From Treponemataceae bacterium (GTDB taxonomy: Bacteria > Spirochaetota > Spirochaetia > Treponematales > Rectinemataceae), in NCBI GenBank assembly GCA_963677895.2, contig CAXXGJ010000006.1:160001-224000 (forward strand): a DNA stretch of 64,000 nucleotides. Reading direction: 5' to 3'. Position numbers and translations under genes: made by a program. The notes beneath the pieces are model-generated. The model was not told the DNA's origin. It saw only the letters and a program-made list of their open reading frames with translations, and did no database searches. Below are positions 649-15,307 of this stretch, in pieces. Each line of letters begins with the position of its first letter. Position 1 is the stretch's first letter.

Positions 649-1239
649 TCATTTGGAGAAAATCTGCGGGAAAATCTTCAAAAGGTCCAGCTGCTGGTCA
701 ATGAAGATCTGCGGAATCTTCTTCTCGGCCGCCGTCTTCGTGAAGTAACCGTCCTTGTTGGCCTGGTTGTGGGTGACAAGAACGTCGGCGAGCGGCGTCA
801 TCGCGCGGATGGACTGCTCGTCGGATTCATCGACCCGCCTCGAGGCTCCCTCAACCTGGGCGACAATCACCTTGATGCCCGCGCTCTTCGCTTTTTTCAC
901 GAGGTCGGTACAGCGCTTGATTTCCTCGCTCAGCTCGACGCCCGCCGATCCCATTCCCTTGAGGCTCGTTCCCGTGATCACGATGAGGGTCTTGTAGGGT
1001 TTCTTGGCCAGGACATCGGCCGTCGCCAGGTCCTCCAGATCCGCGTCCAGCTTGAGCTGACGGCAGAGCACTTTCACGTAAACGCCGCCGGGGCTCTGTC
1101 CGCAGGCGGTGATCAGGATCGGGGTCTTCAGCTCGGGCAGATTCTTGGGAAGCGCGGCCTGGGCCTCGGCGGCGGCGCCGCAGATCAGCCCGAACATGAT
1201 GAAAGCGGACGCGAGGAAAGCGAAACGAGTAGTGCGCAT
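649..1239 (-). CDS. Exported protein, DUF6305-like
   Basis: Signal peptide; motifs PILITACGQSPG and G.SLKGMG.AG; lies between a peptidase and a permease. Confidence 0.6.
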   Translation of the reverse strand: MRTTRFAFLASAFIMFGLICGAAAEAQAALPKNLPELKTPILITACGQSPGGVYVKVLCRQLKLDADLEDLATADVLAKKPYKTLIVITGTSLKGMGSAGVELSEEIKRCTDLVKKAKSAGIKVIVAQVEGASRRVDESDEQSIRAMTPLADVLVTHNQANKDGYFTKTAAEKKIPQIFIDQQLDLLKIFPQIFSK

Positions 1240-6164: not shown

Positions 6165-7205
6165 ATGAAAGCCGCCATTTTCGACCAGTTCCGCGCTCCG
6201 ATCCAGATTTCCGAAGTGCCCGACCCCCAGGTTCCCGAGGACGGCGTCGTCCTGGCCGTGGACGCCACCGGCATCTGCCGGAGCGACTGGCACGGCTGGC
6301 AGGGCCACGACACCGACATCAAGCTGCCCCACGTCCCGGGGCACGAACTCGCGGGCACCATTGTCGAAGTGGGCAAGGGCATCAAGAACTGGAAGCGCGG
6401 CGAGCGCGTCACCATGCCCTTCGTGGCCGGCTGCGGGCACTGCGCCCCCTGCCAATCGGGCAACCAGCAGGTCTGCGACCACCAGTTCCAGCCCGGCTTC
6501 ACGCATTGGGGATCCTTCGCCCAGTATGTCGCCATCCACTACGCCGACATGAACCTCGTCCGCCTACCGGACAGCATGGATTCGGTGTCCGCGGCGAGCC
6601 TCGGCTGCCGCTTCGCCACCGCCTTCAGGGCTCTGGAAGCCCAGGCCAGGGTGCGCGCGGGCGACTGGGTCGCCATCCACGGCTGCGGCGGCGTCGGCCT
6701 CTCCGCCGTCATGATCGCCAAGGCCATGGGCGCCCGGATCGTCGCGGTGGACATCCAGAAGGACAAACTGGAAATGGCGCTGCAGCTCGGCGCCGACGTG
6801 GCCATCGACGGTCGCGCTACCCCGGACATCGTCGGCGCCATCAAGGACGTCACGGGCGGCGGCGCCCAGGTTTCCATGGACGCACTCGGCAGCCTCCAGA
6901 CCTGCTTCAACTCGGTGGCCTGCCTCGCCAAGCGGGGGCGGCACGTGCAGGTCGGCCTCATGCTGGGCGACCAGCACCATCCCGCCATCCCCATGGATCT
7001 CGTCGTCGCCCGCGAACTGGAAATCTACGGCAGCCACGGCATCCAGGCCCACCGCTACGACGTGCTCCTCGGCATGGTCGCCGCGGGAACCCTCCACCCC
7101 GAGCGCCTCGTCACCGACCGCTACACCCTCGCCGAAGGCATCGACTTCCTCCAGCGGATGGACCAGTTCCCGGGCACGGGGATCAGGGTGATCGACAGGG
7201 TATAG
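6165..7205 (+). CDS. Zinc-dependent alcohol dehydrogenase (MDR family)
   Basis: GICRSD, PGHE, CGHCAPC...C, GCGGVG. Start set at MKAAIF (6165) after GAGG. Confidence 0.92.
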
Positions 7206-7252
7206 CGATTCAATACCGTGGTAACTCGCTTCATCAACTAGAGTATTAACGC

Positions 7253-7281
7253 TTGACCGCATTGTAATATTAAATTACAAT
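7253..7281 (+). promoter_or_regulatory. Sigma-70 promoter of the TA operon with an overlapping operator palindrome
   Basis: TTGACC (7253-7258), 17 nt, TACAAT (7276-7281). Inverted repeat ATTGTAAT-N5-ATTACAAT at 7261-7281. Confidence 0.75.
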
Positions 7282-7300
7282 ATAACTCATGAGGTAATAT

Positions 7301-7615
7301 GTGAAGGTTGAGTTTAAAAATTCTCAACTCGAAAAACTCTATTCAACCGGACAATCGAAGAAGTACCCAGTAGGCTCGGCTATCGCGACAAAATTCGTGG
7401 CCGTCGTAGCCAGATTGAAAGCCGCTCAAGACATCCACGATCTTTGGAGACTGCCTTCGCTAAACTTCGAACGACTTCATGGTAACCCGAACAGGTATTC
7501 GGCGAGAGTAACGATCAAGTACCGAGTCGAGATGGAAATAGACTGGGAAAACCAGGAGAAAACCATTGGACTTATCGGTATCGTCGAGCTCTCGAGCCAT
7601 TATGGAGGAAGGTGA
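7301..7615 (+). CDS. higB: HigB-like (RelE/ParE fold) toxin
   Basis: 104 aa with LEKLY, LPSLNFERLHG, YSARVTIKYRV; toxin-first order; GTGA overlap with the antitoxin. Confidence 0.8.
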   Translation: MKVEFKNSQLEKLYSTGQSKKYPVGSAIATKFVAVVARLKAAQDIHDLWRLPSLNFERLHGNPNRYSARVTIKYRVEMEIDWENQEKTIGLIGIVELSSHYGGR

Positions 7616-8721
7616 CTATGGGCGAACTCAAGCCATTCATCAATATCGGACCCGGCATCGTTATAAAGGATGAACTGGAAGCGCTAGGTTGGTCGCAGGA
7701 TGATCTGGCACGCATCATGGGCATGTCACTGAAAGCCGTCAATGAAATCCTTAACGACAAGGTGGCGATAACAGTCGAAACAGCGCGGCTTCTGGGAAAA
7801 GCATTCGGGACATCGGCGGAAATATGGATAAACCTGGATACGGCATATCGACTTCGCCTCCGAGAAGATACCGAGCGCGAACGGGAAGCCGAACGTTATG
7901 CGGCAGTCATGAAGTACATGCCGGTCAGGGAGATGGTCAAGAAAGGATGGCTAGAAACCTACAACTCGTCATCGGAGCTTTTGGAAAAAGCCAAGAATTT
8001 CTGGAATGTTTCCGAGCCTGATTTCTCATTCTTGGGCAAGGCTAAGGAGCCCTGTTTCAGGCGTTCCGACGCTTATGAATTCTACGAGAAATATTACGCC
8101 CTCACCTGGACCCAAAAAGCAAAGGATACTGCTTCAAGTATACATTTGCCGGAATGGGACAGAACCGCGGCCAAAAAGATTGGAGCAAAGCTCGGCAATT
8201 TCTCTCGGCTCGAGAATGGCACCTCGACATTTATACAGGACTTAGAAGTGGCAGGCATAGGGTTTTTCGTACTGAGCCACCTGCAGAAAACGTATCTGGA
8301 CGGAGCGGCGATTTTCGTCGGCGCGAATCCATTCATCGTCTATACTGGCCGCTTCGATCGTTGTGACAATTTCTGGTTTACCGTAGCCCACGAGTTAGCC
8401 CACCTAGTTCTTGGTCACGTGAAGAAGGACGGACAGGAAATCCTTGATGACCTGAAACAGGAAGCCGGAAACGATCAGGAAAAAGCAGCAGATAAACTGG
8501 CTGAAACCTATCTCCACACTGTGGAAATTCTGGAATTTTGCGCGCCTTTTAAAAAGTATCTCTCGCGCGAGAGGATAGAGCGCTGCGCTGAAACAGTCGG
8601 AGTAAGCCCGGGTATTGTGGTTGGAACCTTACAGTATGCGGGTATCCTGCCGTACAAGAACCTAAATAACTATAAAAGACCAATACTCACGGCACTTCCT
8701 GCATCATGCATCAAGGGATAA
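7612..8721 (+). CDS. higA: HigA-like XRE HTH antitoxin fused to an ImmA/IrrE-type HEXXH metallopeptidase
   Basis: N-terminal PG..IKDELEALGWSQDDLA...W.NL...Y; C-terminal DNFWFTVAHELAHL and E..AD. Confidence 0.8.
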   Translation: MTMGELKPFINIGPGIVIKDELEALGWSQDDLARIMGMSLKAVNEILNDKVAITVETARLLGKAFGTSAEIWINLDTAYRLRLREDTEREREAERYAAVMKYMPVREMVKKGWLETYNSSSELLEKAKNFWNVSEPDFSFLGKAKEPCFRRSDAYEFYEKYYALTWTQKAKDTASSIHLPEWDRTAAKKIGAKLGNFSRLENGTSTFIQDLEVAGIGFFVLSHLQKTYLDGAAIFVGANPFIVYTGRFDRCDNFWFTVAHELAHLVLGHVKKDGQEILDDLKQEAGNDQEKAADKLAETYLHTVEILEFCAPFKKYLSRERIERCAETVGVSPGIVVGTLQYAGILPYKNLNNYKRPILTALPASCIKG

Positions 8722-8723
8722 AC

Positions 8724-9554
8724 CTAGACATCATCAAAAAGCTCTTTTTGGTATTCATATGGTATCGGTAATACACCAACAATAACCCAAGGGTTAGGAG
8801 CTAAAAAATGAAACTGTTGAGTCGTGCCAAGATAAAAATGGAGATCTTTCTGTACAAATGTGTCGAAGTATTTTGCCCGAACTTTTTCCAAGACTTGTCG
8901 ATCATCTATCCCTGGTTCCTTGAAACAATTCCAATACAACGCCCCAATTTCCCAATCGAGTATTTGAAGCTGACAACTACGCCCTCGATCATCTTCAAAT
9001 CTGTAAGAAAAGCTATATGGCAACTTTTTTATTAGCTTGAAGGTTCTTCGCCATTCATTATCGTCAAATAAATCAAGCTGATTATAAAAACCCCTCATTT
9101 CAGCAACTTTAGATTCATCCCACTCTCGTTCTTCACTTTCTGAGATAAAATCTATAACTCTCGTAGGTTTGAATATCGCCAACGAAGTTATGTTCCGCTT
9201 TGCATCAATGATAAGAGCATCCATATTTGTATATACTTTTGCAGTTTTTAAGAGAATTTCTCGGCGTGCATGCCAATTATTCTCAGTACCAATTCTACCT
9301 ACCGGTTTTAATTCTTCAGGATTTATCGGACTATATGATTCTGGTCTTGGATCTTTGGTTCTCCGGTTTGTCTGGCATTCAATCCAATCATATTTGCTAT
9401 ATTGTTCAGCTTCATCCAGCCTTCGAAACGGCACTGGGTATAACCTTACCCAAGAGCCATCCTCCCTGATACCAGCCGTGCATACGGTTTCGCCATACTT
9501 CATCGATAATGTCGGATACGTTTTAACGGTGATTAGGATACGTTCCTTTGACAT
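8724..9554 (-). CDS. Conserved hypothetical protein, partner of DUF488 (possible dual-OB nucleic-acid-binding protein)
   Basis: 276 aa, N-terminal ITVKTYP.LS.KYGETVCTAG...G.WVRLYP; starts 12 nt after the DUF488 stop. Confidence 0.6.
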   Translation of the reverse strand: MSKERILITVKTYPTLSMKYGETVCTAGIREDGSWVRLYPVPFRRLDEAEQYSKYDWIECQTNRRTKDPRPESYSPINPEELKPVGRIGTENNWHARREILLKTAKVYTNMDALIIDAKRNITSLAIFKPTRVIDFISESEEREWDESKVAEMRGFYNQLDLFDDNEWRRTFKLIKKLPYSFSYRFEDDRGRSCQLQILDWEIGALYWNCFKEPGIDDRQVLEKVRAKYFDTFVQKDLHFYLGTTQQFHFLAPNPWVIVGVLPIPYEYQKELFDDV

Positions 9555-9566
9555 ACACCAGCTCCG

Positions 9567-10463
9567 TTACAAATTTATTATTTTTATTTTCTCCTCATGC
9601 GTACTTTCAATTGCTTCAGCCACACAGTGCCTATGGCATTGTTCGGGCAAGTGTTCATAGCACGTCAAGGCAACACTCTCTCCCTCCCTAATCCATATAC
9701 GAATCAATTCTAGTGATTCGCTTTTATTTGGAAGAATATTTTTTTTATATTCTTCGAAAAGATGATCATACTCTGCTTGTGTATCAAGATTTTTTCGTTG
9801 ATCGGACGCAATTCCCAAATCAGGCAAATGCTCATACCTGATTCCAACTCCTGCACAAGCCTTAAGCAAGGTATTCTTAGAAAATCCATATTTCCGGCTT
9901 ATTGGATTGCGACGTACATCACAAAGTAGGCTTACGCCACTTCGAATTAAAATATTCAGATACGCTTCCAGGGACAATCCTTCATACCCAATCGTCAGTA
10001 AGCCAGGACACTTTCTTGGTTTCGCTTCTTCGATTCGCTTCAATGCCTTGATATCTGAATGAAGGACCCTCTCCGCTATTTCACTTTTAATCCCGTAGTA
10101 TGGATATTTTCGATACGTTTCTGCAACTAATTCATCACCTCTCAAGCTTGAGTATTTTTGCATAAAACTGCTGATTTTTGTTTTGATATCGGGAGATACC
10201 ATTGTCGATGCCTCAAATCCCGATTGCGTCAATCGCCAATAATGTTCGTCAGGTGACAGCATTCCAGATTCGACCAAATGTCTGCGATCGGCATAGGATG
10301 TGAAGGAAAAGGCACCATACCGATATGGAATAAACTCGTAAAATGCGTTGACATCACACTCCTGGCAACTGAGAAAAAGTAGTTTCTGGAAGTCAAGATT
10401 TCCGACAGGACCATTAGCTGATGCCAACAGTGCCAGCAAGTATTTTTGTCGATGAAATATCAT
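9567..10463 (-). CDS. DUF488-domain protein with an N-terminal winged-helix-like domain
   Basis: TIGYEG, LCDVRRNPISRKYGFSK, YEHLPDLG, LTCYEHLPEQCHRH; N-terminal FQKLLFL...YEFIPYRYGAFS. Confidence 0.8.
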   Translation of the reverse strand: MIFHRQKYLLALLASANGPVGNLDFQKLLFLSCQECDVNAFYEFIPYRYGAFSFTSYADRRHLVESGMLSPDEHYWRLTQSGFEASTMVSPDIKTKISSFMQKYSSLRGDELVAETYRKYPYYGIKSEIAERVLHSDIKALKRIEEAKPRKCPGLLTIGYEGLSLEAYLNILIRSGVSLLCDVRRNPISRKYGFSKNTLLKACAGVGIRYEHLPDLGIASDQRKNLDTQAEYDHLFEEYKKNILPNKSESLELIRIWIREGESVALTCYEHLPEQCHRHCVAEAIESTHEEKIKIINL

Positions 10464-10511
10464 AGTGTCCTATTTACATTATACGAGAATATTTCAGCTT
10501 TACAAGTTCTC

Positions 10512-10604
10512 TTACTTCAACGCCGTATAGATTTCTTAAAGACTCTCGATACTAACTTCCAGTTTTTCGATGATCTCACCAGCGAGAATGTCAGGGTAAA
10601 GTAA
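10512..10604 (-). pseudogene. 3' remnant resembling the C-terminus of type I R-M methyltransferase HsdM
   Basis: Reads LLYPDILAGEIIEKLEVSIESL*EIYTALK*; internal stop at 10536-10538 and no upstream gene body. Confidence 0.55.
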
Positions 10605-10655
10605 AGGGTCACCATCTCTGGGAGCTCGGCATAAAGCATGGCAGAAGCGCGCAAC

Positions 10656-10676
10656 GGGTTGAAGCGGTTGTTCGTA
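10656..10676 (-). mobile_element. Truncated attC site (R''-L'' half only)
   Basis: Plus strand GGTTGAAGC-GGTT-GTTCG matches GGTTGAAGC-ATTT-GTTAG of the intact attC. It lies 15 nt after the DUF1801 stop; the complementary arm is absent. Confidence 0.6.
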
Positions 10677-10691
10677 AAATATTATTTCTTT

Positions 10692-11075
10692 CTATATTCG
10701 TCTCAATTCTCCATTATTGATTCTTATGTTTTTGTAATCCCATTGTATGCTTAGTGCTTCATCAAGCCACTTATTAAGTTCGTTTTCGTTTGTTTCTTCA
10801 ATTTTTGTATATACCCTTTCCGCAGCTTTGAATTTCCCGATTGGACTTAGCCCCTTGTTGCTGAAGGATTGTCCACTCCAAAAAAGTAGTGCAATTCCAT
10901 TTTTCTTTTTTGAATATCCGACTATCGGATTTTCGTCTATAAACCATACAGGAGCACCATGGTACATTTTTGATGTAGCGTTCTTCAGTTTTAGATTAAT
11001 CAAACCGCAGAGTTTTATGCAAATGTCTTTCAGGGTGCCTTCAAATTGATTGTTGTATTCTTCAAATTGATCCAT
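10692..11075 (-). CDS. DUF1801 (YdhG-like) protein, probable cassette gene
   Basis: Start MDQFEE at 11075 with GGAGGA RBS; K.YHGAPVWFIDENPIVGY..K...LLFWSGQSF. Confidence 0.8.
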   Translation of the reverse strand: MDQFEEYNNQFEGTLKDICIKLCGLINLKLKNATSKMYHGAPVWFIDENPIVGYSKKKNGIALLFWSGQSFSNKGLSPIGKFKAAERVYTKIEETNENELNKWLDEALSIQWDYKNIRINNGELRRI

Positions 11076-11275
11076 AATCCTCCGATATCTTGCTTGATCG
11101 AAGCAACATCTTTTATATGCTGGACGTATTTGCGCGCGTAGCATCAGGCTAATAAGTATGATGTCCTTCTTCGTAAAATACTTTTGAATAATCTATTTTC
11201 CATTAATATATTGTAGTTAAAACAAATATAACTCTTTTATACAACATAGCTATTTCAGCTCCATATAGTTGATCC

Positions 11276-11400
11276 GACTAACATAAGCTTAACCTTTAAA
11301 GCCTGGCCCGAGCTACTGCGAGGGATTGGCGTGGTTTGTGCATGTGATTTCTGCACAAACCATGCCAAAAGGCTTTATAAGGTTGAAGCATTTGTTAGGA
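11276..11400 (-). mobile_element. Integron attC recombination site (125 bp)
   Basis: R'' TCCTAAC (11400-11394) and R' GTTAGTC (11282-11276). Bottom-strand hairpin with unpaired spacer ATAA/ATTT and extrahelical G11385 and T11378. Inner 17-bp stem 11326-11342/11352-11368. Begins 7 nt after the RT stop. Confidence 0.9.
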
Positions 11401-11407
11401 TTCTTTT

Positions 11408-12730
11408 TTAAGACATTGCACTCATATCTTGTTCAATATCAAGAATACTCTTGTGTATTAATTTTTTAAATTTGTATTGCGCGTCATCTATATTTTTAAA
11501 CTGAATACCGATATAACTTAGTAGTTTTATTATCATATCGTCAGAATATTCATCATAATTGGGTATATATTTTGATTTTATGCCTTTTTTAGTTATTTCT
11601 TTATATACTCTAGATATCTTTTTAATTTTAAGCTCTTCACATTTATACCTTTTCATCTGTCTATTTATAAAGTGATCTATTGAAAATAATTCTTGAATAT
11701 TTTCTGTTTGTGAAAAAAAGAACATCCATCCATACTTTTTGTTTTCCCAAATAAATCCGGTAATTCTCAAGTTTACTCTAAACTCTAGTTTTTTTGGATT
11801 TTTTTTTGCCTGATGCTTATATATTGTTAGAAGACGTATAATAGATTCTTTGAATTTCCTTTTGCTCTTTAATCGAATTGATACTTTTCTATTTGAAAAA
11901 CAATATCCAAGGTAATCAAACTTATCATGAATTGGTGCAACCTTATACTTATCCCCATCATTAAAGACTAACTTGTATTTTTCAATTTCTTTGAATAATT
12001 TATTTTCTAAATACTTCCTATTATCAAAATTACATAAAATTAAAATATCATCAACGTACCTATAGTACTTAATATTTCTTATCTTTGAGATCTCTTTATC
12101 AAATGGAGTTAGATATACATTTGCAAGAATATTTGCTATAGATAAACCTTGCGGAACTCCTTTATCCCTGACAAAAATATCATCAGCTTTGTAAGCAGAA
12201 TTTGTATTTTTAATAGACGCCATAAGCAATTTTATAACTTCAACTTTTCTAATTTTTGTTTTAACTTGTTTTAATAGTATCTCGTGATCTATGCTTGGGT
12301 AATAATTTTTAACATCTAGCTTAATAAAGCAATTATACTGTAAGTCTTTAATACTTTTTGATATATCTGCAATTTGAGTATGCAGCCTTCTTTTTACTAA
12401 TTGTTCGGTAAATGCACTTTCAAGTATTTCGAATAATGCTCTTAAGACTAATCGATCTCTCAAAGTTGGCTTTTCAACAATTCTTGGACAACTATTGTAG
12501 CCTTTTGAAAGTAATTTTGCTTTATAGACAGTAAAACTATACGTTCCTGCCTTACACTTAGTAATAATTAACTCTGTGTGCAATGCAAAATCACGTCGAA
12601 ACTGATGGCTTGTCATTCCATCAATTCCTGAAGTTGCATTTAATCCAATTTTATCATCAAATATTGATAATAAAGCTTTATTTGTAAATATTTTATTAAA
12701 TTTTTCTGCAGAATTTAACTTAATAGCCAT
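11408..12730 (-). CDS. Reverse transcriptase, UG17/DRT10-like defence-associated type
   Basis: GIDG, SKG...PRIVEKPTLRDR, FIKLDVKNYYPSIDH, GVPQGLSIANILANVYL, YYRYVDDILI, FDYLGY, C-terminal YGWMFFFSQ. Likely start MAIKL at 12730, overlapping the SLATT stop (ORF track extends to 12814). Confidence 0.88.
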   Translation of the reverse strand: MAIKLNSAEKFNKIFTNKALLSIFDDKIGLNATSGIDGMTSHQFRRDFALHTELIITKCKAGTYSFTVYKAKLLSKGYNSCPRIVEKPTLRDRLVLRALFEILESAFTEQLVKRRLHTQIADISKSIKDLQYNCFIKLDVKNYYPSIDHEILLKQVKTKIRKVEVIKLLMASIKNTNSAYKADDIFVRDKGVPQGLSIANILANVYLTPFDKEISKIRNIKYYRYVDDILILCNFDNRKYLENKLFKEIEKYKLVFNDGDKYKVAPIHDKFDYLGYCFSNRKVSIRLKSKRKFKESIIRLLTIYKHQAKKNPKKLEFRVNLRITGFIWENKKYGWMFFFSQTENIQELFSIDHFINRQMKRYKCEELKIKKISRVYKEITKKGIKSKYIPNYDEYSDDMIIKLLSYIGIQFKNIDDAQYKFKKLIHKSILDIEQDMSAMS

Positions 12731-13290
12731 ATAAATATTCCTATCGGGATAACTAAGTAAATCAGAATTATTATTAGCCAAACTACTATATTTCGTATAA
12801 TAAAATAGCTCCATTCAAAAAATGATGGATTTGGAACAGTATTATTCTCAGAAGGATTTGTGGTTTTTCTAAGAAAACACTGAATAATTACTTTTTTATA
12901 ATCATATTCTGAGTGATTTTCAGTTTCCCTAAGCAATTGATCATATTGATCTTCAATATTCGCTGTACTATCATTTCTGTTTTCTGCAGAATAAGCATCA
13001 CTTATTAGTTTCCCGATACTAATATATTGTTCTTTTACTTGTCGGCATTCTTGTTTAAAATCTTTCTGCGATAGTAAAAGCGATACAACTAATACAATAA
13101 TCGAACCGAGCACTGAAAAGGTGTTTCTAATAGAGGAATCAACATTAGAAGGTATGATAGATACAGCAATAAGTAAAATTGAATACCACGGAATCAAGTA
13201 AGTACAGATTTTATAATTGAAATTCAATCTTTTTTCCATATTAATACGTACTTTTCTTGTAATCCACATTCTATCACTTAGCTTATTCAT
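12715..13290 (-). CDS. SLATT-domain transmembrane effector
   Basis: N-terminal W.TRKVRINMEKRL helix, two adjacent TM helices, Y..LL..TENHSEYDY, further C-terminal TM; GGAG RBS. Confidence 0.8.
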   Translation of the reverse strand: MNKLSDRMWITRKVRINMEKRLNFNYKICTYLIPWYSILLIAVSIIPSNVDSSIRNTFSVLGSIIVLVVSLLLSQKDFKQECRQVKEQYISIGKLISDAYSAENRNDSTANIEDQYDQLLRETENHSEYDYKKVIIQCFLRKTTNPSENNTVPNPSFFEWSYFIIRNIVVWLIIILIYLVIPIGIFIWLLS

Positions 13291-13299
13291 AACTACTCC

Positions 13300-13432
13300 A
13301 AAAAAAAGGGGGAATTCTTATAGGAACACCTTAACAACGCTTCTTGCAAAGCTTATCTCTCGATAAAAGCATTACTGCTTTTTTGAATAGAACACCTACA
13401 ATGTAAGCTGTGTAAACACAAAGAATCCCCCC
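13300..13432 (-). ncRNA. Putative RT template ncRNA
   Basis: 12-bp closing stem GGGGGGAUUCUU/AAGAAUUCCCCC followed by U8. Three abutting 5-bp GNRA hairpins (13380-13339), a UGUG-UUUA-CACA hairpin and two AGGUGUUC repeats. Confidence 0.78.
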
Positions 13433-13446
13433 AATAATCACAAAGT

Positions 13447-13468
13447 AATCCTAACAATTATTATACCG
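13447..13468 (-). mobile_element. Cassette 5' recombination point (G/TTAGGATT), attI-like, with adjacent TATAAT
   Basis: GTTAGGATT (13455-13447) is the exact 9-bp complement of the R'' end at 11394-11402; TATAAT at 13465-13460. Confidence 0.65.
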
Positions 13469-13700
13469 TTTATCATAAACTACTATTTAGGTAATCTATT
13501 CGCCAGTAACATATGACACCATCATTAGATGTTATATCTCTTTGAGTGATTCCGCAACATTTTTCGTGATTCTTATAATCCTACGTAAGTAATGAAGAGT
13601 AATGCAACTAACGCGATGGGCGCCTTACCATGCATTAACAAAGCCAAGGGTCAATTTACAGCAACTGCCCGCAATCGACAAACTCTTGATATCGTTTTTG

Positions 13701-14444
13701 CTATTTTTTTAAAATACTTGACGCATCGACAATGACTAGCATTTTCTCTTTACACTCATCCCAAAGCCGCGGCTCAGTAACTAGCTCGCACATAAAATGC
13801 GCGACATTAGCCATGGCGGTGGCTTTAGGCTTGAAAAGACTGCTCACAAGGCTCTCGTGTACCTTGTACTCGCTCACGTCGCCCTCTGTGAGGCTATCCG
13901 GGCGCACGACAACCCACTGGATTGCGGGATCGACGAGGCCGATCCTGTCGCGAAGGTAGTCGGCCGCATTCTGATTATCCGAGGCGGGGGGCACGAGGCC
14001 GCGCATGACCCAGAGAAGGGCCTTTTCCAAAACCCCCCGCCGCGCATCGGCAGCGCCTGGCACGTTGACCGAAACACTGCTCATGAGCACGAACTTGACC
14101 GCTTTTTCGGGCTTGAGAGCCTGAACAGCCGCGCAAGCCCTGGCGACGACCTGCGCCACAAGATCCCTGGGCTGACCGAAAATGCCTTTCATTGTCGTGG
14201 TTGTGTGGCCGAGGCAGGAAATGATCGCGTCGCATCCGGCGACGTACCGGCTAAGCTCGTCGTCGCCTAACGACAATAAATCGGCCTCGATTACCTCAAG
14301 CCCCTCCTTGCCGGCAACTCCTTCGGGCAGCCTGGCGCTTGAACGGACGATCGCGCGGACGGTGACTCCGCGTTCCAGAAGCTGCCTGAGGACGCGGCCG
14401 CCGGTGCGCCCGGTGCCACCCAATAAAAGCACGGTGATGTTCAC
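13701..14444 (-). CDS. NAD(P)H-binding atypical SDR oxidoreductase
   Basis: GGTGRTG Rossmann motif; WVVVRPDSL; GTGA overlap with the upstream HTH gene. Confidence 0.85.
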   Translation of the reverse strand: MNITVLLLGGTGRTGGRVLRQLLERGVTVRAIVRSSARLPEGVAGKEGLEVIEADLLSLGDDELSRYVAGCDAIISCLGHTTTTMKGIFGQPRDLVAQVVARACAAVQALKPEKAVKFVLMSSVSVNVPGAADARRGVLEKALLWVMRGLVPPASDNQNAADYLRDRIGLVDPAIQWVVVRPDSLTEGDVSEYKVHESLVSSLFKPKATAMANVAHFMCELVTEPRLWDECKEKMLVIVDASSILKK

Positions 14445-14671
14445 GATTCTTCCTCCGAATAGTGGAACACCTCGTTCAGCGGCACGCCGAACACGTTGGC
14501 GATTCGGAAGGCCATCTCCAGCGAAGGAGAATAACGGCCCTGCTCTATCGCGATTATTGTCTGCCTGGTCACACGCACGCGGTCCGCGAGCTCGGCCTGG
14601 GTCATCTCGCCCGCGGCGAACCTGAGCGTCCGAATGCTGTTGGTCACCCTCATCGACGAGTCCATGATCAA
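14441..14671 (-). CDS. XRE-family HTH transcriptional regulator
   Basis: MTQAELADRVRVTRQTIIAIEQGRYSPSLEMAFRIA. Confidence 0.92.
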   Translation of the reverse strand: MIMDSSMRVTNSIRTLRFAAGEMTQAELADRVRVTRQTIIAIEQGRYSPSLEMAFRIANVFGVPLNEVFHYSEEES

Positions 14672-15120
14672 TAACCCCTGCGGTAGATGACGATCTTGAC
14701 CACGGAGGACACGAGCCCCCCTATCATCATGGTCAAAAAGAGGGCGTTCGCGATCCAGAACTGGTCAGCCCTCACCATGGCGAGGGCTATGACGCCGAGA
14801 ATGCCCACCGACGCGACGTAGTAGCCGACAAGCTCGCCGCGGCGGTTGATGTGGTCATCCCTCTCGTCTTTGCGGCCGATATCGTCCGCCGAGCCCCTGT
14901 GTCGTATCTCGGCAGCGACGGCGGAGCCGATCGACATGAGTATCATGCCAACGATCGTCGCGACGATAATGGCTCCGATGGCCATGAGCATTGGTTTCTG
15001 ATAGGCGATATGGGCCAGCGGCACGCTTCCCATCTGATTGAGAACAAAGGAGCAATAAATTCCCGTGACCAGCACGGTCACAATGGTTGAAACCCAGGTG
15101 GCTCTCTCTTCGTACGACAT
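14668..15120 (-). CDS. Small 4-TM membrane protein with DERD motif (XRE operon partner)
   Basis: Start MSYEER at 15120 with GGAGG RBS; KDERD between the TM pairs. Confidence 0.7.
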   Translation of the reverse strand: MSYEERATWVSTIVTVLVTGIYCSFVLNQMGSVPLAHIAYQKPMLMAIGAIIVATIVGMILMSIGSAVAAEIRHRGSADDIGRKDERDDHINRRGELVGYYVASVGILGVIALAMVRADQFWIANALFLTMMIGGLVSSVVKIVIYRRGY

Positions 15121-15131
15121 CGAAACCTCCA

Positions 15132-15200
15132 ACATGTCAAGAATGTTTGACATGTGCTAATGTAAAGCTATCTATACATTATGTCAAGGATGTTATACAA
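15132..15200. promoter_or_regulatory. Three tandem operator palindromes, ATGTcAA-N6-TtgACAT
   Basis: 15132-15155 (perfect 9-bp arms), 15159-15180 and 15181-15200, upstream of the XRE operon. Confidence 0.75.
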
Positions 15201-15307
15201 AAAAATATTATTCAGTGAGCAGGGTGCGTGACCAAACGGGAGCCGATTCCCGATTGGTCATGACTTTTCGGGAATCCGTTTCATTTTAGTCCTTTGTAAA
15301 GCGCAGA

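Follow-up and report, generated by a model that had tools for sequence, protein, structure and literature searches.

A probable DRT10 anti-phage system carried on an integron-type gene cassette in a Treponemataceae bacterium

Introduction

The reverse transcriptases (RTs) of the UG17 class were named DRT10 in 2025. As described in the available part of PMC12632851, they belong to tripartite systems of a non-coding RNA (ncRNA), a SLATT protein and the RT, all three of which are needed for defence, and the RT makes long single-stranded tandem repeats from a short A-B-A′ template that follows a stable stem-loop. The equation of UG17 with DRT10 and the tandem-repeat complementary DNA (cDNA) appear likewise in the available text of Sanchez-Nieto et al. 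2026 (10.64898/2026.04.29.721553), and at least four DRT10 preprints exist. Here we analyse a locus in a 64,000-nucleotide stretch of DNA from a Treponemataceae bacterium (assembly GCA_963677895.2, contig CAXXGJ010000006.1; the whole stretch is called the window, and all coordinates refer to it). At this locus the initial annotation, made from the sequence alone, had placed a DRT10-like module of ncRNA, SLATT protein and RT. The two sources cited above do describe the kind of system it named, a set of ncRNA, SLATT and RT that yields tandem-repeat cDNA.

In E. coli DRT10 the RNA binds the RT and is also its template (PMC12632851), and the ncRNA has its own promoter. Two preprints, in their available portions, describe a 2:1 RT:ncRNA complex on a pseudo-symmetric RNA, with template boundaries set by the distance from the flanking stem-loops (10.64898/2026.06.29.735271; 10.64898/2026.10.08.757509). 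In the studied systems the RT starts DNA synthesis on its own C-terminal residue, Ser in Eco3 and Tyr in Eco1 (PMC12632851), and how the cDNA acts on SLATT has so far been described only as a model. The order SLATT-RT with overlapping genes is the predominant UG17 arrangement in published work, and Sanchez-Nieto et al. distinguish three RT groups, UG17-A, UG17-B and UG17-C, each with its own ncRNA type (10.64898/2026.04.29.721553). At least one UG17 locus from Spirochaetes is already present in Table S1 of Tang et al. (PMC12632851). DRT9 (UG28) and DRT2 (UG2), both class 2 systems, resemble the present module in the ncRNA-templated synthesis of repetitive cDNA by a UG-family RT, and the DRT9 ncRNA was reported to resemble that of DRT10 (PMC12632851). 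However, neither is described with a SLATT partner in the available sources.

The locus analysed here is very probably an intact DRT10 (UG17) anti-phage system located on one integron-type gene cassette. It is a new DRT10 (UG17) member, with its mechanism taken by homology from the E. coli work. As in the E. coli systems Eco1-3DRT10 (Tang et al. 2025) and Escherichia sp. E3659 (UG17-A; Sanchez-Nieto et al. 2026), the order is ncRNA - SLATT_5 - RT with overlapping genes. The RNA has a long basal stem and small stem-loops in both cases, with 125 nucleotides (nt) here and 137–143 nt in E. coli, and the loop that leads into the 3′ strand of the basal stem contains an A-B-A′ template, which begins 2 nt past a stem-loop. 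Also shared are the YVDD motif and the C-terminal Ser or Tyr of the RT. The predicted repeat differs in length, with 8 nt here, 9 nt in Eco3 and 7 nt in E3659.

The packaging as an integron cassette is the one feature that we did not find in print. The words integron, attC and cassette have no occurrence in the main text of PMC12632851 and 10.64898/2026.04.29.721553, a term search for DRT, SLATT, UG17 and retron gave no occurrence in the available text of Darracq et al. 2024 (10.1101/2024.07.02.601686), and no paper linking DRT10 to integrons was found in the literature searched. With this locus DRT10, a system linked to telomerase origins, reaches an RT clade that has been sampled little, and the 8-nt repeat, the template segment and the priming Ser predicted for it can be tested within about 2.2 kilobases (kb). 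The current picture of the DRT10 mechanism is left unchanged.

Two overlapping genes in an AT-rich module

The program-made list of open reading frames (ORFs) contains two overlapping ORFs on the minus strand, 11408..12814 (468 amino acids, aa) and 12715..13290 (191 aa), and the motifs LDVKNYYPSI, PQG, YVDD and FDYLGY are all present where the initial annotation had read them. The RT frame is open up to 12814. Its most likely start is the ATG at 12730, giving 440 aa (11408..12730, minus strand), because the database cluster representative has 440 aa and relatives align from there. In this form the four motifs lie at aa 138, 193, 225 and 271. The RT matched the PADLOC model RT_UG17 with 4e-131 and 435.8 bits over profile positions 3-429 of 429, and Pfam RVT_1 with 2.1e-20. 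By profile and by tree (see below) the RT belongs to the UG17 family, as had been proposed from its motifs.

The catalytic YVDD (aa 225-228; 12047..12058, minus strand) is intact. In an alignment of 29 UG17 RTs, V226, D227 and D228 are invariant and Y225 is nearly so. The last residue, Ser440 (codon 11411..11413, minus strand), is the predicted protein-priming residue and is invariant in all ten members of the clade described below. Among the 29 UG17 RTs the C-terminal residue is Ser in 23 and Tyr in five, and one RT has a SASG ending.

The upstream gene (12715..13290, minus strand, 191 aa) encodes the putative effector. It matched Pfam SLATT_5 with 1.1e-31 (profile 6-192 of 192) and PADLOC RTasSLATT with 9.6e-43, which places the protein described before as SLATT-like in the SLATT_5 family on profile evidence, and three stretches of it (about aa 28-50, 54-78 and 160-191) are hydrophobic. 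The overlap between the SLATT stop codon (TAA, 12717-12715) and the RT start (12730) is 16 nt. The gene order on the minus strand is ncRNA - SLATT_5 - RT with the SLATT and RT genes co-oriented, which excludes the RT-SLATT arrangement among the UG17 subtypes.

The GC content is 25-31% across 11500-13500 compared with about 60% in both flanks, and 28.9% for the cassette defined below compared with 56.0% for the genome. The earlier description of a very AT-rich module in a GC-rich host was thus accurate. Its call of a probable spirochaete also agrees with our data, since an M20 amidohydrolase of the window has a cluster mate of at least 90% identity named Spirochaetaceae bacterium, the only named mate.

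The module is carried by an integron-type cassette

The ncRNA, the SLATT gene, the RT gene and their own attC site make up an integron-type gene cassette of 2173 base pairs (bp; 11282..13454, minus strand). After the RT stop codon, TCCTAAC, GCTTCAACC, a central hairpin, GGTTAAGC and GTTAGTC follow each other in the layout of an integron attC site (11276..11400, minus strand; R″ box TCCTAAC 11400-11394, R′ box GTTAGTC 11282-11276). The consensus of attC boxes includes GTTRRRY, and the identity of the site was read from its box layout against this consensus, without an attC covariance model. As single-stranded DNA, its bottom strand folds into an imperfect hairpin of −34.4 kcal/mol. The 5′ junction of the cassette is G13455|TT and the 3′ crossover is G11282|TT inside GTTAGTC. 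At the 5′ junction, GTTAGGA (13455-13449) is the exact complement of the cassette's R″ box TCCTAAC. The extent given in the initial annotation, 11408-13455, therefore corresponds to the stretch from the RT stop to the 5′ junction (G13455|T13454). Its reading of an intact DRT10 member stands, and it missed the integron-type cassette.

A search of the host genome with the window attC (nhmmer) detected 51 copies at E<1e-8, the window's included, and their consensus retains cCTAAC, GCTTCAACC, GGTTAAGCC and GTTAG. The contig C39 (46.4 kb) holds 45 of the 51 copies in one orientation, 548-3648 bp apart, and in 39 of its 43 ORF-holding intervals the longest ORF shares the strand of the attC. Single copies were found on contigs C6 (the window), C30, C13, C2, C5 and C28.

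The same boundaries recur in a close relative from the metagenome scan, L086, whose RT and SLATT are 66% and 51% identical to those of the window. Homology to L086 begins at an identical GTTAGGATTAC, and L086 has the same R″ box after the RT, the same cassette boundaries and five attC sites of the same family that bound single-gene units. We also aligned contigs from four metagenome runs to 11300-13650. In all four runs the summed depth over 11300-11457 was much above that over the genes (14,625 in run X4 and 57-433 in the others, versus 2-12), and this segment was covered by many variant short contigs with many different continuations. The repeat-like depth is explained by the integron attC-type sequence after the RT stop. 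Contigs of X4 (2104 nt) and X5 (2110 nt), from two studies, cover only 11374/11369..13456, and an X9 contig agrees up to 13457 and diverges beyond. Because of the complementarity between the junction and R″, the attC copies, the boundaries shared with L086 and the contig ends, we read the module as an integron-type cassette from its sequence features.

Three of the closest RT relatives (P0002, P0004 and P0005) lie on contigs of about 2.1 kb (2109, 2137 and 2122), which is the cassette size, and their contig ends look as if these assemblies also break at repeated attC sites. No site of the cassette's attC family was found in the other 159 UG17 loci.

Defence cassettes of sedentary chromosomal integrons, as described in the available text of Darracq et al. 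2024, are similar in that an anti-phage system lies in one cassette with an attC in a genome with a large array. The cassette of the window differs from them by an additional ncRNA gene, its place outside the main array and the lack of an integrase nearby. In 2013 Treponema was the only spirochaete clade then known with integrons, according to the available part of PMC3607928. The present host, like those in that source, is of a spirochaete lineage with chromosomal cassette arrays, but no integrase was found in its assembly. Under the cassette reading, a defence system of three parts, RNA and proteins together, can travel within one integron cassette, which bears on how such systems spread and on how toxic effectors are restrained in cassette arrays.

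Several results speak against an intact and working system on a cassette. The best match to the integron integrase model TIGR02249 reached 103 bits against a cut-off of 265 in the assembly of the host (92.8% complete, 39 contigs), and neither attC nor attI was found upstream of 13455, on the 5′ side of the cassette. Therefore the attC sites of the window, one full copy on its own and one truncated, do not make up a complete integron, and the cassette may have been left stranded. The basal stem of the ncRNA begins after only 22 nt of cassette sequence, which raises the question of how the ncRNA is transcribed. The promoter scan detected no site on the minus strand upstream of the ncRNA, with 12 promoter-like sites in the whole scan against 15.4 expected. 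Activity of the module in this host would follow by homology with the E. coli systems.

These findings are also what a genuine DRT10 module would leave if it were silent, that is, a promoterless cassette stranded outside the integron platform as stored cargo, and integron cassettes are described as mostly promoterless in the available parts of PMC11511950 and PMC1382264. We nevertheless consider silence unlikely, since all three parts are intact and the module recurs with about 99.5% identity in contigs from two further studies, which show 11-12 differences in about 2.1 kb. In addition, a perfect TATAAT is located at 13465-13460 (minus strand), 4 nt beyond the junction, and lacks a good -35 box. 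Transcription driven by it could begin near the first cassette base, and the E. coli ncRNA, as noted, has a promoter of its own. For the cassette reading we put forward one tentative extension. In this clade, the whole telomerase-like DRT10 with its template RNA gene might have been streamlined into a single mobile cassette. Expression of the ncRNA, and so the arming of SLATT, would then be set by the landing site through an upstream promoter or read-through, and arrays could store a silent system and switch it on by shuffling.

It is improbable that a generic interspersed repeat of the REP or MITE kind follows the RT and that the cassette reading is wrong. On the side of such a repeat, no integron integrase was found, the window R′ box GTTAGTC is one base off GTTRRRY, and the attC call was made from box layout. 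However, a generic repeat would not account for 45 head-to-tail copies in one orientation every 0.55-3.6 kb on C39 with the longest ORF on the same strand in 39 of 43 intervals, nor for the conserved cCTAAC and GTTAG that flank imperfect inverted repeats. Moreover, R″ is the exact complement of the opposite cassette junction in the window and L086 alike, and L086 has five such sites around single-gene units.

The C39 array has 33.4% GC in the 56% GC genome (L178-L180). Its 66 ORFs of at least 60 aa gave only two weak PADLOC matches, a TIR effector with 31.5 bits and mad2 with 30.4 bits. Another locus of the genome (L002, G000:C30:16549-19953) holds a UG9-class defence RT (RT_UG9_small) spread over the ORFs 1895-2314, 1147-1929 and 707-1114 (minus strand), which cover profile positions 12-136, 142-389 and 411-540. 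This split RT directly follows an attC of the same family (C30:19034-18908) and looks like a broken RT cassette.

A DRT10-type ncRNA precedes the SLATT gene

The DRT10-type ncRNA of 125 nt (13308..13432, minus strand) consists of a basal stem P1, five stem-loops and two single-stranded loops. P1 has 12 bp (13432-13421 / 13319-13308, minus strand) and encloses the five small hairpins. It is directly followed by a U8 tract (13307-13300) and then by the SLATT ribosome-binding site GGAG (13299-13296), so that the ncRNA 3′ end lies 17 nt before the SLATT ATG. The 190 nt upstream of SLATT fold with −50.1 kcal/mol compared with −37.6 ± 3.8 kcal/mol in 200 shuffles (z = −3.25), none of which was as low. 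Together with the covariance model match below, this agrees with the compact structured non-coding segment noted before. Single-sequence folds of 98 distinct related loci also gave a long basal stem around several hairpins, mostly ending roughly 17-25 nt before the SLATT start.

To compare the RNA with those of other UG17 loci we used a covariance model, R1, built from 15 RNAs of sister clades, with the window and L086 left out. RNAalifold on a MAFFT alignment gave three of its six helices and the other three were written by hand from single-sequence folds. The R1 structure is thus partly the author's reading. On both strands of the 64-kb window R1 gave a single match, at 13311-13430 on the minus strand, with 24.3 bits and E 0.0031, over the full model (positions 1-143 of 143), two of its pairs being marked as non-standard. 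The RNA upstream of the L086 SLATT aligns to the window ncRNA element by element. In P1, AU>GC, UA>CG and GU>GC changes keep the pairing, and P1 is 3 bp shorter on both strands. In the last stem-loop CG>UG and UG>CG changes are found, and four hairpin loops differ. The ncRNA was called because of the position and strand of the match and the one-to-one order of elements, together with the score. These results show the presence, position and fold class of the ncRNA. Rfam gave only chance-level matches on the ncRNA region, with E 5.6-9.3 and far under the gathering scores. The simple motif CTAWTNA was tried as a marker of Loop A and rejected, as it is too variable among the loci.

A further reading takes the structured segment as only a cis-acting leader or terminator of the SLATT-RT operon and not as template RNA. 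P1, GC-rich at its base, with the U8 tract and the ribosome-binding site behind it, has the look of such an element, and pairing between the 5′ leader and the region of the ribosome-binding site is seen in the minimum-energy fold. We regard this as very unlikely, since the architecture, position and element order are those of the 98 related loci, R1 matches, and in the studied systems the same RNA binds the RT and serves as template (PMC12632851). As a feature of the family the U-tract had to be rejected, because a T-run of at least four after the stem occurs in only 28 of the 98 loci. In the window it may mark the end of the ncRNA. The terminator scan gave no site, with a method that is blind to a stem enclosing 100 nt. 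The minimum-energy fold pairs GAUUACUUU of the 5′ leader (13443-13451) with GGAGUAGUU around the SLATT ribosome-binding site (13291-13299, minus strand). In this one predicted fold, the pairing could mask translation of the effector.

The template loop and the predicted repeat

Loop B, the putative template loop (13320..13338, minus strand), lies between the last stem-loop (13352-13339) with its closing G and the 3′ strand of P1. It is composed of a UU linker, the A-B template GUUAAGGU (13335-13328), A′ GUU (13327-13325) and a 3′ linker CCUAU, and reads GUU-AAGGU-GUU as A-B-A′, starting 2 nt past the stem-loop. The layout is thus 2 + 8 + 3 + 5 nt, compared with 2 + 9 + 4 + 4 in Eco3DRT10 as given in the available part of 10.64898/2026.06.29.735271. 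In L086 the loop reads GUU-GAGGU-GUU, with A and A′ kept and B changed, as expected from the published rule, under which A has to match A′ and B may vary (PMC12632851). By homology with the E. coli systems, the predicted product is an 8-nt tandem-repeat cDNA with the unit 5′-ACCTTAAC-3′. The template register is ambiguous, as UGUU-AAGG-UGUU yields the same repeat.

There are also reasons for caution about the RNA and its template, which count on the other side. The R1 score is modest, and the window was absent among the 32 matches at E<=0.01 in a sevenfold larger search of 97 sources (453,509 bases). The reverse strands of eight training members score 29-35 bits with R1, and at about 24 bits the score therefore depends on overall shape no less than on sequence. 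For this clade the covariation is thin and comes from a comparison of two sequences. A repeat of 3-4 nt in a U-rich loop of 19 nt is likely by chance, and the template repeat is supported only by where it lies and by its retention in a single relative, L086. Finally, functional knowledge comes entirely from E. coli systems whose RTs are 41% or less identical to the one studied here. As a separate observation, the reverse-strand matches fit the pseudo-symmetric RNA of the published cryo-electron microscopy preprints.

If the module works as in E. coli, the 125-nt ncRNA would fold into a pseudo-symmetric scaffold that binds the RT, and the RT would prime DNA synthesis from its own C-terminal Ser440. 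It would copy the 8-nt GUUAAGGU in Loop B and halt at the stem-loop 5′ of the template. The end of the nascent DNA would then re-pair with the downstream A′ GUU and the cycle would repeat, giving long single-stranded tandem repeats of the unit 5′-ACCTTAAC-3′. In the published model the cDNA, or its accumulation upon phage infection, would activate the SLATT membrane protein, which would halt the infected cell. Expression, the cDNA product, defence and the link between cDNA and SLATT are all inferred by homology for this locus. The host genome contains an exonuclease I-type gene (L181, G000:C18:49584-50417; PF08411, 217 bits, in a 546-aa frame). In E. coli, exonuclease I is the host factor that reportedly restrains DRT10 (10.64898/2026.04.29.721553), so the published control model has its host factor here.

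Relatives of the reverse transcriptase

The initial annotation had suggested placing the RT in a tree or profile set of the known RT classes, and the profile comparison supports UG17. After RT_UG17, the best PADLOC models were the generic RT (121.8 bits), Drt3a (115.2) and RT_UG4 (99.8), and the Drt9 and Drt2 models gave 64.5 and 86 bits. An RT of another class (DRT3/UG3, retron, group II intron or diversity-generating retroelement), which weaker DRT matches such as Drt3a at 115 bits and the label 'retron-type reverse transcriptase' given to relatives by some sources might suggest, is hardly credible, since the UG17 model matches end-to-end and more than 300 bits above every other, no Rfam family including the group II intron reaches its gathering score over the whole window, and the SLATT_5 partner and UG17-type ncRNA are present.

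A protein search with the RT, over 7176 candidates, gave 1539 relatives at E<=1e-20. The closest are 73, 65, 64 and 50% identical and all lie on short metagenome-assembly contigs, and all other relatives, the named ones included, reach 41% or less. A tree of 90 rows was calculated with IQ-TREE (LG+G4, short search), with support from the SH-type approximate likelihood ratio test (SH-aLRT) only. The window RT groups with P0002-P0005 in a clade of five rows (SH-aLRT 100) amid UG17 sequences. This clade is nested in one of ten rows, known only from metagenomes, whose sister (support 98) contains 11 rows from Nitrospirota, Thermodesulfobacteriota, Chloroflexota and other metagenome-assembled genomes (MAGs). 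The 21 rows thus joined form a clade apart from the Bacillota rows and the main Pseudomonadota clades, and most of the 52 Pseudomonadota rows are in the other half of the tree.

Among 60 scanned relatives of the host no comparable RT match was found, with two genomes at 142-158 bits over part of the model, and neither of the two same-genus genomes had an RT match. A scan of the species genome contigs with the single RT resulted in 111 pattern matches, none of them confirmed. The related genome loci were therefore obtained with an alignment query instead of the single RT. The metagenome scan yielded 245 relatives among 569 pattern matches, of which the best 80 of 245 were used. At 75 of the 80 related genome loci an ORF abuts the RT upstream. 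In the remaining five, SLATT again lies upstream at L010 and L011, it is upstream and separated from the RT by an RNA-like element at L019 and L027, and it is downstream at L063. The ncRNA model matches at L019:1323-1463 and L027:718-855 (Balneola and Paceibacterota MAGs) with 45.6 and 32.6 bits. The order is thus SLATT - ncRNA - RT in these two loci and RT then SLATT in L063 (Paenibacillus).

The surrounding island

In the same-genus genome G001, which has 94% DNA identity, synteny with the window ends at 7205 and restarts at 15231, and the 8.0 kb in between (7206-15230) are replaced by 40 bp. Searches detected no integrase among the island ORFs and no tRNA in the 64-kb window. Downstream of the DRT10 cassette, a further cassette (10624..11281, minus strand) contains a DUF1801 gene (10692-11144; Pfam 2.2e-05, 25.2 bits, under the 27.2-bit cut-off) and then a truncated attC (10675-10624; attC profile positions 5-56 of 136, E 0.0046). 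A candidate defence pair, PDC-M19B and PDC-M19A, follows at 8724-10463 (minus strand; PADLOC 6.5e-110 and 3.1e-104), and after this pair no attC of the cassette's family was found. M19A carries DUF488, and the pair is convergent with an ImmA/IrrE-like regulator gene with HTH_3 and Peptidase_M78 domains (7612-8721, plus strand). On the other side of the cassette the island has three GC-rich genes (13701-15153). Just outside the island, G001 has about 1.15 kb extra between window positions 15299 and 15309.

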